14,478 nt of DNA, from the IMG/VR virus record IMGVR_UViG_2713896899_000013, positions 1-14,478 of that record; one strand, written 5' to 3'. This DNA comes from a virus. Its lineage: Duplodnaviria; Heunggongvirae; Uroviricota; Caudoviricetes. Each line of letters starts with the position of its first letter. The first letter of the stretch is position 1. The notes beneath the pieces were generated by a model. The model did no database searches, was not told the origin of the DNA, and saw only the letters and a program-made list of their open reading frames with translations. Below, piece by piece: positions 304 through 2,110 of this stretch. Position numbers and translations under genes: made by a program.

Positions 304-852
304 ATGGCGAACAATCTTTTTTATACACTTGACAGGCAGCGCACACTGAAGTCAGGCATGAAAATTGAATTAGCAGAACCGTACTGCCCAATCGTTCCAC
401 TTCAGGCTCATACGAGCTCATTGTTTTCCGACGGTGTATCCCGGCATGCAAATAATCTTTTTTTCAACTACCACATAAACCTCGTCAGCTCAGACGAACG
501 ATTTGGAGCAATAATAGAAATACTACTGGAAGAACGAAGGAAATCACACTTCCCTGAAAAACCATCGCGCTTCCAATCAATTTTTGCATGTGAGTCTGTA
601 AAAGAAACCGCCTGGTTCAGAGGCTTTTCAAAATCCCCACTTGACACCCCAATATTTCAAGTCAGCTCATCGTCGAACTATCATAGAGGTGATATGAATT
701 TGTTAAATCTGAACTGCTCCCCAGTAGAAGTATCTCAGAGGCTGGATCTTTACTGGAAGGGTGAAACAACACAGATTTACGAAGGGTATCAACCATTCTG
801 GGAAGTGCTCATTCCATTGCCAGTTATTATTGGTGAAAGAATTATCGAATAA
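304..852 (+). CDS. Hypothetical protein (182 aa), first gene of the AT-rich insert
   Basis: ATG at 304 preceded by AGAAGGAA (287-294); no motif I recognise; lower GC than the phage backbone; its 3' end overlaps the convergent ORF 842-1147 by 11 nt. Confidence 0.45.
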   Translation: MANNLFYTLDRQRTLKSGMKIELAEPYCPIVPLQAHTSSLFSDGVSRHANNLFFNYHINLVSSDERFGAIIEILLEERRKSHFPEKPSRFQSIFACESVKETAWFRGFSKSPLDTPIFQVSSSSNYHRGDMNLLNLNCSPVEVSQRLDLYWKGETTQIYEGYQPFWEVLIPLPVIIGERIIE

Positions 853-1147
853 TGGCTCTGACACCAGAATCATTTCCATAGCCGAACTGACGCTGACAGA
901 TTTTTAATTCGCTTATGGCTTTCTCCATTGCTAATAGCGCGTCTTCAGTACGGTAGCAATCAACCTCAAGAACAAACGTTTTGAGATTGCTACTATCATT
1001 CCCGGCGAAAAGCGCATAGCTGGGTTGACCAGTCTGATTCATCCCCCCCCCCTCAAACGACGAAACCCGCTCGACGGCGGGTTTAAGCCACGTGACAAAG
1101 TAACCACTCTTAACACGATACAATAGTTTTTGCGTACGCGTTAGCAT
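842..1147 (-). CDS. Hypothetical protein (101 aa) containing a homopolymeric tract
   Basis: ORF in the track; no clear Shine-Dalgarno; the C10 run (G10 on the coding strand) encodes E-G-G-G in frame, so the length of the tract controls the reading frame. Confidence 0.35.
   Translation of the reverse strand: MLTRTQKLLYRVKSGYFVTWLKPAVERVSSFEGGGMNQTGQPSYALFAGNDSSNLKTFVLEVDCYRTEDALLAMEKAISELKICQRQFGYGNDSGVRAIIR
1043..1052. repeat. Homopolymeric tract, 10 x C (10 x G on the minus strand)
   Basis: Read directly: atCCCCCCCCCCtcaaacg. Confidence 0.9.
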
Positions 1148-1195
1148 TTTTGTTAAAGTATAAAAATGTAATTAAACCAGTATGTCATCACTACA

Positions 1196-2080
1196 ATGAA
1201 ATGCATCCGAAAACATCCAGCAATAGCTTATACAGTAATTATTTTAGTTTTTGCCTTAATATACAATTTCACTTGGAGCGTCAATCCAGATTCTTTCATT
1301 AAAAACAACGTTCTCAACTCTACACCTGTATATGATGCCGTTAATTTAGCATATGCGAACAATGAGGTAAAAAAAGAAGCTCCTGTCAGTGTTTCGAGGG
1401 AAGTATTTGCAGAGCAAATTTTAACACTTACAAATCAATTCAATAAGATAGTAATTGAAAACTTAGAACTTGAAAAAACATTATCTCAGCAGCAAGAAAA
1501 ATTAAAACAAATTAGTGAAAGACAATCAATAAAGTGGGGCGAAAACACCAAAAAATACATAGCAGACAGTTTGAAAGATTTACACAAAACGCTTATCACT
1601 AAAAATAGTGAACGTACTGCCATAGCATCTTTAAAAAACAAAACAAATGAAAGTCAGATTAACACTATGCTGGCCGACAAAGATGAAGAAATAGCCAAAA
1701 TAAACCTTGAAATAGCGTATAAAGAGTATGATGCTAATGTCTATATCTTATCTCATGTCGGCGACTTTAACGATCCAATAATCGTTAATGAGCTTGACGC
1801 AATCAATAAAGAAATTGAGAAAACAAGAACAAAAATAATAAACAATAAAAAGAAAATAATGGAGATAAGGAATAAATCTCAATCTATGCTGGAGAAACTC
1901 AAAAAAGATGACCTTAACTTTTTGGATTTCTTATTTTATAGCATAGGAATATCTACAACGACCACCTTTGGTGATTTGTTAGCAAATTCAAGACTTATCA
2001 GACTGATAGTTTGCGTGCAACTTTTACTATCAATTATAGTTTTAGCTAACGTAACTCAAAGATTTTTATCAAAAAAATAA
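1196..2080 (+). CDS. Membrane protein (294 aa): N-terminal TM helix, long Lys/Glu-rich probable coiled coil, C-terminal pore-helix / selectivity-filter-like segment / TM helix
   Basis: Hydrophobic N-terminal stretch AIAYTVIILVFALIYNF; C-terminal FLFYSIGISTTTTFGDLL followed by LIRLIVCVQLLLSIIVLANV, which resembles the K+-channel P-loop (S-x-T-T-x-G-Y/F-G-D) plus an M2 helix; strongly AT-rich; no obvious Shine-Dalgarno. Confidence 0.6.
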   Translation: MKCIRKHPAIAYTVIILVFALIYNFTWSVNPDSFIKNNVLNSTPVYDAVNLAYANNEVKKEAPVSVSREVFAEQILTLTNQFNKIVIENLELEKTLSQQQEKLKQISERQSIKWGENTKKYIADSLKDLHKTLITKNSERTAIASLKNKTNESQINTMLADKDEEIAKINLEIAYKEYDANVYILSHVGDFNDPIIVNELDAINKEIEKTRTKIINNKKKIMEIRNKSQSMLEKLKKDDLNFLDFLFYSIGISTTTTFGDLLANSRLIRLIVCVQLLLSIIVLANVTQRFLSKK

Positions 2081-2110
2081 AAAACAAAGCCCTCAAAAAT
2101 GAGGGCTAAT
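2075..2110. terminator. Bidirectional intrinsic terminator between the convergent membrane-protein gene and Q
   Basis: Stem GCCCTCA (2089-2095) / TGAGGGC (2100-2106) with loop AAAA; the minus-strand reading is followed by a long U-rich run (TTTGTTTTTTATTTTTTT). Confidence 0.55.

Follow-up and report, generated by a model that had tools for sequence, protein, structure and literature searches.

Two variable cargo slots flank a probable late regulatory element in a lambdoid prophage and carry a divergent channel-superfamily protein and a DUF2441 gene pair

We analyzed a viral DNA sequence of 14,478 nt (IMG/VR record IMGVR_UViG_2713896899_000013; hereafter the window), the minus strand of which is the left arm of a lambdoid prophage, and focused on the three open reading frames (ORF1 to ORF3) that lie between its antiterminator gene Q and its holin gene. 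This interval consists of two slots of variable content on either side of a conserved non-coding element that is probably the late regulatory region. Slot A, between Q and the element, carries ORF3, a divergent member of the K+-channel superfamily by sequence; slot B, between the element and the holin gene, carries ORF1, a DUF2441 protein with an ADP-ribosyltransferase (ART) fold, and its convergent partner ORF2. Our reading is that two accessory cassettes were separately acquired at two recombination hotspots flanking the late element, that ORF3 is most likely a lysogen-expressed depolarizing anti-phage channel, and that ORF1/ORF2 may be a toxin/antidote-like, NAD-dependent conflict module; we lean toward this combination of claims without holding it firmly. 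The features that define the interval are as follows.

1–27, minus strand: first 9 codons of the holin gene (MDKLTTGVA...), cut by the window edge (sequence, megablast, backbone alignment)
74–103, minus strand: terminator-like hairpin with a T-run, close upstream of the holin gene and at the edge of cassette B that faces it (terminator scan)
304–852, plus strand: ORF1, 182 aa, DUF2441, ART fold
842–1042, minus strand: ORF2, 66 aa (not 101 aa), partner of ORF1 (phrog_10826, homologue lengths)
1055–1144, minus strand: conserved non-coding element, probable pR′/Q-loading site plus tR′ (conservation, position)
1196–2080, plus strand: ORF3, 294 aa, K+-channel superfamily, candidate anti-phage membrane effector (Pfam, AlphaFold2 (AF2) model, alignment, context)
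2088–2107: GC-rich hairpin between the converging ORF3 and Q genes (terminator scan, sequence)
2118–2477, probably 2118–2462, minus strand: antiterminator Q, Q21/Q933W family, ~114 aa (PF06530, E 2.6e-45; phrog_79)

Two slots of variable content flank a conserved, probable late element

A sequence-only reading of the window had placed a single AT-rich insert of three genes beside Q. The three ORFs that it listed, at 304–852 (+), 842–1147 (−) and 1196–2080 (+), are all present, and the gene next to Q, ORF3, does converge on it. Comparison with related prophages also bears out the suggestion that the interval from Q to the lysis genes holds variable acquired cargo. What did not survive is the single insert. 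When E. coli genomes and phages were searched by megablast, matches were limited to Q, DUF968 and a ~110-nt piece at 1041–1153, and the DNA between these matched pieces varies in length and content among relatives. The block is therefore two cassettes split by a conserved backbone element, and since the ORF1/ORF2 pair is found with or without ORF3, the two cassettes, which occur together or apart, assort independently.

The conserved element recurs without annotation, at 84–95% identity, in phages SfII and Stx2a_1447 as well as in hundreds of E. coli genomes. Its core (1144–1055, minus strand) reads CTAACGCGTACGCAAAAACTATTGTATCGTGTTAAGAGTGGTTAC, followed by a GC-rich hairpin and a T-tract, and it contains the following parts.

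1142–1131, minus strand: ACGC direct repeats
1125–1120, minus strand: TATTGT
1112–1107, minus strand: TAAGAG
1082–1077 / 1070–1065, minus strand: stem of the intrinsic terminator, with its T-tract at 1064–1055

For an empty-site test, we built a synthetic junction joining the element directly to the end of Q and searched it against complete E. coli genomes; it gave one contiguous match in 13 of them, in which slot A is empty. In E. coli Combat2C1, the gap between the Q stop codon and the element is ~15 nt. On the downstream side, what follows the element in relatives is the holin gene directly, a methyltransferase gene with tRNAs and stx2, or genes for a scabin-like ADP-ribosyltransferase and an AB5 B subunit. 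The textbook late cassette runs from Q through pR′, a pause element and a terminator to the late genes (10.1101/651190). Because the segment at 1055–1144 is conserved, abuts Q when the slot is empty and precedes late cargo or the holin gene, we read it as the probable late promoter, Q-loading and terminator unit. The only Q-site-like feature within it is the pair of ACGC direct repeats upstream of the −10-like TATTGT, with a −10-like TAAGAG also present; the TGAGCA repeats found at the Q site of phage 21 are absent. The earlier expectation that the insert sits at the late regulatory region proved exact for ORF3, whose place is precisely between Q and the element to which Q is joined when the site is empty.

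Slot A (1154–2117) holds at least six alternative cargoes in relatives. ORF3 occupies it in this window, in E. coli and other Escherichia draft genomes and in IMG/VR contigs, and ORF3 DNA was absent from all 5,426 complete E. coli genomes searched. Other E. coli relatives carry a gene pair matching the PADLOC candidate PDC-M53 A/B, or a divergent variant of that pair, and phage SfII has a pair similar in size to PDC-M53 A/B at the same position. Three further unknown gene pairs were found, one of them equal in size to the pair of Stx2a_1447, as was a 187-aa protein with an N-terminal transmembrane (TM) segment, a Lys/Glu-rich composition and no pore domain (locus L045, 3639–4202). The body of this 187-aa protein is probably coiled-coil, and it is combined with the same ORF1/ORF2 cassette. 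All of these slot A genes are counter-oriented to phage transcription.

Slot B (~100–1040) contains stx2, an AB5 toxin, a methyltransferase, ORF1/ORF2 or nothing in the relatives compared. Conserved flanks, variable content and an empty state, as expected of a hotspot, were found for both slots. A repeat search found neither direct nor inverted repeats at the flanks of the cassettes, so that neither bears this mark of a transposon-like insertion.

The slots differ in base composition. The three ORFs had all been described as AT-rich, and this holds strongly for ORF3, whose GC content of 30.8% is lower than that of every 885-nt backbone window (minimum 41.2%, mean 49%). It does not hold as strongly for the pair in slot B: ORF1 (41.7%) falls within the lowest 1.8% of backbone windows, and ORF2 (43.3%; Q, 44.2%) is unremarkable.

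Each end of the interval is marked by a hairpin. The one at 2088–2107, 10 nt from the Q stop codon, was scored as a terminator for the minus strand only, its plus-strand T-run being weak. The hairpin reported beside Q is real, but its bidirectionality is in doubt: it appears to terminate the Q transcript strongly and that of ORF3 less so. At the other end, the T-run of the 74–103 hairpin and the sequence that follows it are kept in relatives without cassette B, and the hairpin may insulate that cassette from the holin gene. Cassette B is bracketed on the late strand by terminator-like hairpins at 74–103 and 1055–1084, so that without Q, minus-strand transcription through ORF2 should stop before the holin gene. 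The holin start codon is at 27–25, with a AGGTGGAG ribosome-binding site upstream (~37–44), and by megablast, bases 1–78 align with holin genes annotated in several Escherichia phages and with the DNA that precedes them. Since both the holin start and its ribosome-binding site are present, the interval studied here runs in full from Q to the holin gene, and there is no truncation of the prophage at this end.

ORF3 is a divergent member of the K+-channel superfamily

None of the three ORFs had shown a recognizable motif in the sequence-only reading. Profile searches overturned this for two of them: ORF1 matches DUF2441 above its cut-off, and residues 239–290 of ORF3 match Pfam Ion_trans_2 (PF07885; 24.4 bits against a cut-off of 22.5) and include a K+-filter-like TTTTFGD. 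Most ORF3 homologues have a precomputed PF07885 match, and databases label ORF3 an ion channel. Its closest sequences in the PDB are bacterial K+ channels, a weak match in which ySiGISTTTTFGD is aligned with WAIVTATTVGYGD and TTTTFGD falls on the TTVGYGD of bacterial K+ channels.

The AF2 model of ORF3, a monomer with a pLDDT of 82, begins with TM1 (8–29), a short strand at an invariant PDSFI motif and a disordered linker. An antiparallel helical hairpin of ~110 Å follows, with one helix up (68–144) and two helices back (152–186 and 194–239), and the chain ends in a pore helix (242–253), the STTTTFGD loop (253–260) and TM2 (266–293). Hydropathy peaks only at 4–26 and 271–291, so that model and hydropathy together give TM1, pore helix, filter loop and TM2 in the order of a K+ channel. 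Positively charged residues flank both the N and the C terminus; given these charges and the standard topology of K+ channels, we predict that the hairpin lies in the periplasm.

The filter is not canonical. ORF3 lacks the T-[VI]-G-[YF]-G-D signature, its first glycine being replaced by threonine, and among 221 relatives the filter reads STTTTFGD in 122 and the canonical TTTGYGD in 7. Because of this replacement, we treat ORF3 as a divergent member of the superfamily, for which K+ selectivity should not be assumed; by sequence it is a divergent two-TM pore protein. In the family alignment the filter and the PDSFI motif are invariant and the most conserved parts, and the stalk sequence diverges freely. 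At E≤0.001 the family comprises 798 representative clusters, a number that falls to 128 at E≤1e-30; the proteins are nearly all 280–330 aa long.

Two-TM K+ channels such as KcsA and Listeria Lmo2059/LmK have the same order of TM1, pore helix, filter and TM2. ORF3 differs from these canonical channels in that its turret is expanded into a helical hairpin of ~200 residues, it has no cytoplasmic gating domain and its gene is carried on mobile elements.

The sequence that precedes the gene also recurs.

1150–1195, plus strand: 5′ region of the ORF3 cassette, with an ATTTT(T)GTTAAA motif that includes a −35-like TTGTTA at 1150–1155

This upstream motif (ATTTTGTTAAA) is common to the cassettes of 55%-identical homologues in four other contexts, at a similar distance from the ATG, which suggests that the ORF3 gene brings its own putative promoter.

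ORF3 homologues lie in prophages, defense islands and mobile elements

We sampled eight distinct contexts of the ORF3 family, and all eight are in or beside a prophage, a defense island or a mobile element. Relatives at 63–100% identity occupy the same Q slot. Homologues are also found beside Ogr or integrase genes at the ends of P2-like prophages, and in a P2-like prophage tail-region hotspot and an integrase-adjacent island, where they are convergent with a dGTPase gene whose product matches the PADLOC dGTPase model at 1e-109. One homologue lies in a defense island with an nSTAND3 protein (PDC-S73), ArdC, a dGTPase and a Gabija-like gene pair (OLD-family nuclease and UvrD helicase).

Vibrio relatives (~23% identity) form an operon with an upstream gene for a 226-aa protein of no known family, which they overlap by 11 nt. 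This pair (loci L034–L036, 7331–8915) stands beside an Mrr-nSTAND1 gene or, as cargo, downstream of TniQ and Csy2, Csy3 and Csy4; the neighborhood of TniQ and type I-F Cas (Csy) genes resembles a CRISPR-associated transposon.

Homologues of ~55% identity make up, with a PADLOC-type dGTPase gene, a convergent cassette of 2.6 kb (loci L007, L015, L016 and L018; ~7830–10400). We observed this cassette in four settings, namely a defense island, two integrase-adjacent sites and a P2-like hotspot. The joint travel of the two genes suggests co-mobilization or cooperation.

ORF1 and ORF2 form a conserved convergent pair

ORF1 matches DUF2441, which Pfam assigns to the ART clan (PMC7955679), and its model (pLDDT 92) has the ART fold. 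The residues R89, H127, D130 and E167 are invariant in 22 sequences; the catalytic triads of the clan are of the H-Y-E or R-S-E kind. The structural-genomics protein BC2332 of Bacillus cereus (PDB 2AUA), also of the DUF2441 family, is 21% identical to ORF1, and relatives of ORF1 occur in temperate phages of Gordonia, Streptococcus and Klebsiella. In Streptococcus phage Javan642 (locus L030, 2950–3664), a gene for a distant DUF2441 homologue is counter-oriented to its neighbors, and its 3′ end overlaps by 26 nt a convergent 59-aa ORF that is not visibly ORF2-like.

An AAGGA ribosome-binding site precedes the ORF1 ATG at 304, and a probable promoter lies upstream.

233–261, plus strand: probable sigma-70 promoter of ORF1, with −35 TTCACT (233–238), a 17-nt spacer and an extended −10 TGaTATCGT (253–261)

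In the Salmonella version, whose protein is 53% identical, the promoter hexamers are conserved and the spacer differs. ORF1 thus probably has its own promoter. A sigma-70 promoter scan of the DNA found no more sites than in shuffled sequence, and none in the late element.

The ORF2 gene is convergent with ORF1, and their 3′ ends overlap by 11 nt. Of the 101-aa version (842–1147), only residues 36–101 match phrog_10826, and homologues are mostly 65–69 aa (77–109 aa in a KP12-like subgroup), so we reject the longer gene model. The 105 nt upstream of the true ORF2 are conserved, unannotated and non-coding in 190 complete E. coli genomes. In public assemblies, gene callers extend ORF2 to 90–93 or 101 aa across the terminator element (1043–1147, minus strand), an annotation artifact that hides the regulatory element. 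The ribosome-binding site of ORF2 is a homopolymer.

1043–1052, minus strand: G10 homopolymer forming the ORF2 ribosome-binding site (GAGGGGGGGGGG), read from the sequence

The ORF2 ATG at 1042 follows this tract directly, and relatives have GAGGAGGGGGG (G6) or GGAGGA instead; slippage at G10 could vary ORF2 translation.

An ORF2-like ORF converges on or overlaps the 3′ end of the ORF1 relative in 36 of 47 IMG/VR loci, down to 34% ORF1 identity. The same arrangement was seen in individually inspected contigs, one of which carries a decayed copy with frameshifts in both genes. The pair occurs with PF06530 and DUF1133-type Q genes (three Q types), with several holin families and next to HicAB. 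The usual enterobacterial order is Q(−), ORF2(−)/ORF1(+), holin(−), and KP12-like phages have the module flipped relative to the holin gene. This flip speaks for internal control of the module, by convergent and overlapping transcription, over a tie to late transcription.

An ORF2 profile searched against Pfam and the PDB returned only designed helices and noise, and ORF2 shows no helix-turn-helix (HTH) or Aca-like features. A tblastn search of the phage collection, with a query this short, gave no match, and a profile search on the fetched loci succeeded. Two candidate identities were set aside. A resemblance to the N-terminal domain of HicB, suggested by a motif, was supported by no search. 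ORF2 is also not the first late gene of the backbone, because the 67-aa gene at the same position in an E. coli relative (locus L004) is unrelated in sequence.

In E. coli Combat2C1 (locus L043, 1069–2355), where slot A is empty, slot B holds genes for a scabin-related ADP-ribosyltransferase and a subtilase-family AB5 B subunit. These are co-oriented with the late operon and occupy the position of stx2 in Stx2a_1447.

Proposed functions and alternative explanations

The own 5′ region and terminator of ORF3, together with its placement on the strand opposite to phage transcription, lead us to expect expression in the lysogen. In the mechanism that we favor, ORF3 would be made there and assemble as a tetramer; infection by another phage would cause it to open or otherwise perturb the inner membrane, and the resulting dissipation of the membrane potential would abort or exclude the infection. 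The periplasmic stalk would serve as sensor or gate. Genomic context supports a role in defense or exclusion, and it makes the anti-phage module proposed by the sequence-only reading the best-supported interpretation for ORF3, though no PADLOC model covers any of the three proteins. For cassette B, ORF2 would restrain an NAD-dependent modifying activity of ORF1, which would make the two a toxin/antidote-like pair.

A more specific version is possible, and we put it forward tentatively. Here ORF3 would found a new class of self-contained anti-phage channels made of a single protein, with a pore derived from a K+ channel, a periplasmic antenna of ~110 Å and neither a cytoplasmic sensor nor a second messenger. 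The coiled coil would detect the envelope-penetrating machinery of an incoming phage or a breach of the cell wall and gate depolarization directly. Secondarily, DUF2441/ORF2 would be a new ART-based conflict module, controlled by convergent, overlapping transcription.

Three other explanations of the slot A gene or of the whole block have to be set against the channel. ORF3 could be a superinfection-exclusion protein whose stalk binds or obstructs the phage tail tip or ejection conduit, with the channel part serving as a tetrameric anchor and neither ion flux nor cell death involved. The long predicted periplasmic hairpin, the loss of the first filter glycine in most family members, the TM and coiled-coil protein without a pore domain that takes the same slot elsewhere, and a prophage location that suits exclusion genes all speak for it. 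We nevertheless judge it improbable, as STTTTFGD and PDSFI are the best-conserved parts and the stalk is free to diverge, which indicates a functional pore, and the family also occurs in chromosomal defense islands beside abortive-type systems. A comparably low probability attaches to a lysogenic-conversion channel that would serve host physiology (K+ or cation homeostasis, stress tolerance) or tune the timing of lysis and have no anti-phage role. Such a channel would agree with membership of the K+-channel superfamily, with the plain database label and with the proximity of the lysis cassette in the window; yet ORF3 is counter-oriented to the late operon, homologues occur far from lysis genes (P2 tail-region hotspots, defense islands, transposon cargo), the slot is shared with a PADLOC defense candidate, and a gene of housekeeping benefit would not be expected to be missing, as ORF3 DNA is, from all 5,426 complete E. 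coli genomes. One might also take the three genes for common backbone genes or for what is left of a truncated prophage, the latter raised by the sequence-only reading, because the window stops 27 nt into the holin gene and leaves the lysis and structural genes out of view. Comparison with relatives refutes this, and we give it virtually no credence: in relatives that share the Q, DUF968, KilA-N and RusA backbone, all three genes are missing or other cargo is found; lysis and packaging modules are complete in relatives that have these cassettes; neither the holin start nor the DNA upstream of it is disrupted; and the window contains integrase, repressor and replication genes.

Cassette B could instead act in counter-defense or host takeover, ORF1 ADP-ribosylating a host immune or core protein and ORF2 serving as regulator or specificity factor. 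Precedents reportedly exist in the anti-CRISPR AcrIF11 and in Alt and Mod of phage T4, which are said to ADP-ribosylate their targets. The spread of ORF1 relatives across temperate phages of such diverse hosts and the co-orientation of ORF1 with the late genes in KP12-like phages fit this idea. Here and in most enterobacterial loci, however, ORF1 runs against the late operon from a probable promoter of its own, which suits expression in the lysogen better, and ORF2 has none of the HTH or Aca-like features mentioned above; on balance we regard counter-defense as rather unlikely and keep the toxin/antidote-like module as our proposal.

Several observations count against the reading of two accessory cassettes with a depolarizing channel and a conflict module. 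The loss of the filter glycine makes both conduction and selectivity of ORF3 uncertain, and the pore region of the monomer model is of moderate confidence (pLDDT 64–86). When the ORF3 model was searched by structure, generic coiled coils (SMC arms, PI3K p85, EmrA) were the only matches, none of them at E≤0.001. In PADLOC-DB 2.0.0, ORF1 and ORF2 have no match and ORF3 matches only PDC-M68B at E 0.042, and our literature search found no paper on the function of either the ORF3 or the ORF1 family. Since homologues travel with a dGTPase or, in Vibrio, with the 226-aa partner, ORF3 on its own may be incomplete, and guilt by association cannot separate defense from other conflict or fitness functions. 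The putative pR′ element has no convincing sigma-70 −35 hexamer, the scan having found no site there and a manual search weak candidates only. Finally, the idea that ORF2 is always a Q-dependent late antidote was downgraded, since KP12-like phages carry the module in the opposite orientation.

Relation to described systems

Neither cassette corresponds to a described defense system. Among the nearest in general plan is Hailong, which, in the secondary descriptions on which this comparison relies, combines an ion-channel effector, HalA (IRK K+-channel domain and pentapeptide repeats), with a nucleotidyltransferase, HalB; the channel is described as acting by membrane depolarization, and the system is placed in mobile-element hotspots (10.64898/2026.02.27.708500; PMC13276650). 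ORF3 resembles it as a membrane ion-channel effector in such hotspots. Hailong needs an adjacent HalB and its HalA has pentapeptide repeats, whereas ORF3 has neither and, unlike HalA, carries a predicted periplasmic coiled-coil hairpin and the TTTTFGD filter. Pfam detects in ORF3 only Ion_trans_2 and weak coiled-coil noise, which is not the HalA-type architecture. No nucleotidyltransferase occurs among the annotated neighbors in the eight sampled contexts, the neighbors in the window being Q and the late element, and the PDB search found no detectable sequence match between ORF3 and any solved Hailong-type channel.

As a two-TM pore protein that stands alone and is encoded between Q and the probable late promoter, ORF3 differs from RexB of phage lambda, which is said to be a four-TM protein unrelated to K+ channels, to need the sensor RexA and to be encoded in the immunity region. 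RexA/RexB is a prophage abortive-infection system, expressed in the lysogen, whose membrane ion channel depolarizes the cell (PMC13276650). The PADLOC candidate PDC-M53 (A/B) shares with ORF3 the position between Q and the late element and the counter-orientation, in E. coli relatives; it consists of two proteins unrelated to ORF3 and is itself a computational candidate only. ORF3 is covered by no PADLOC or NCBIfam model, and the main text of the DefensePredictor study (PMC13092281) mentions neither an ion-channel system nor DUF2441.

Cassette B shares its terminator-to-holin slot with the toxin cargo of lambdoid phages (stx2 in Stx2a_1447; the scabin-like ART and AB5 B subunit in Combat2C1). 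ORF2 follows the direction of late transcription, like those toxin genes, and ORF1 is counter-oriented and probably has its own promoter. The cassette differs from toxin cargo in having no signal peptide or B subunit, and the ART domain of ORF1 is of the DUF2441 type, not the pertussis or scabin type. It is also not of the DarTG, RES-Xre or ParST kind, as ORF2 has no macrodomain, Xre HTH or chaperone and the genes are convergent, not operonic. In the Tai/Ati system of phi80, a prophage defense gene is matched by a self-immunity factor made from the Q-dependent late operon, and BstA/aba is similar (PMC11364771). ORF2 likewise comes first after the late terminator in this window. The proteins of those systems are not related to ORF1 or ORF2, and since the ORF1/ORF2 module occurs in both orientations to the late operon, the analogy is only partial.

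Other features of the window

The remaining genes agree with the left arm of a lambdoid prophage.

8319–8993: S24 repressor
12886–14064: integrase

The window further encodes a CII-like protein, a replication protein, a PerC-like protein and Dam, followed by LexA-like, RusA, KilA-N and DUF968 proteins and the antiterminator Q, which is annotated as 114–115 aa in relatives and belongs to PF06530, the Q21/Q933W family (10.1101/651190). The ORF3 and ORF1 proteins are identical to deposited proteins of Escherichia albertii and Escherichia spp., and the host of the prophage is probably Escherichia albertii.

The PerC-family regulator is encoded at 5656–6150 (−; PF06069, E 7.9e-09). Two ORFs lie between the repressor and the early-left genes, at 9194–9709 (−, 171 aa) and 9860–10540 (+, 226 aa), the first within a stretch of lower GC content (~40–44%). 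Neither matched any model in Pfam, NCBIfam or PADLOC, and they may be further accessory genes adjoining the immunity region. An Rfam scan of positions 1–2600 found no RNA family, two sub-threshold matches (RyhB, sR53) being put down to chance. No tRNA genes were found, in contrast to the Stx-phage version of slot B.

Implications

The position of slot A places cargo between Q and the promoter that is probably its own target, and the lambdoid phages to which this applies are a widespread group, Stx2 and SfII-type phages among them. This little-noticed hotspot is not the classic stx slot, which lies beyond the late terminator, and offers a simple anchor for the mining of new accessory systems. 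For the DUF2441/ORF2 pair, an orphan ART-fold family gains a conserved partner and a cloneable genomic setting. The ORF3 family, which numbers ~800 sequence clusters in Proteobacteria and has a model in neither PADLOC nor NCBIfam, offers in its invariant TTTTFGD filter a natural experiment in channel selectivity. If ORF3 is a true defense channel, it would be an immune protein that senses infection from the periplasm and kills or protects the cell through a pore of the K+-channel type.

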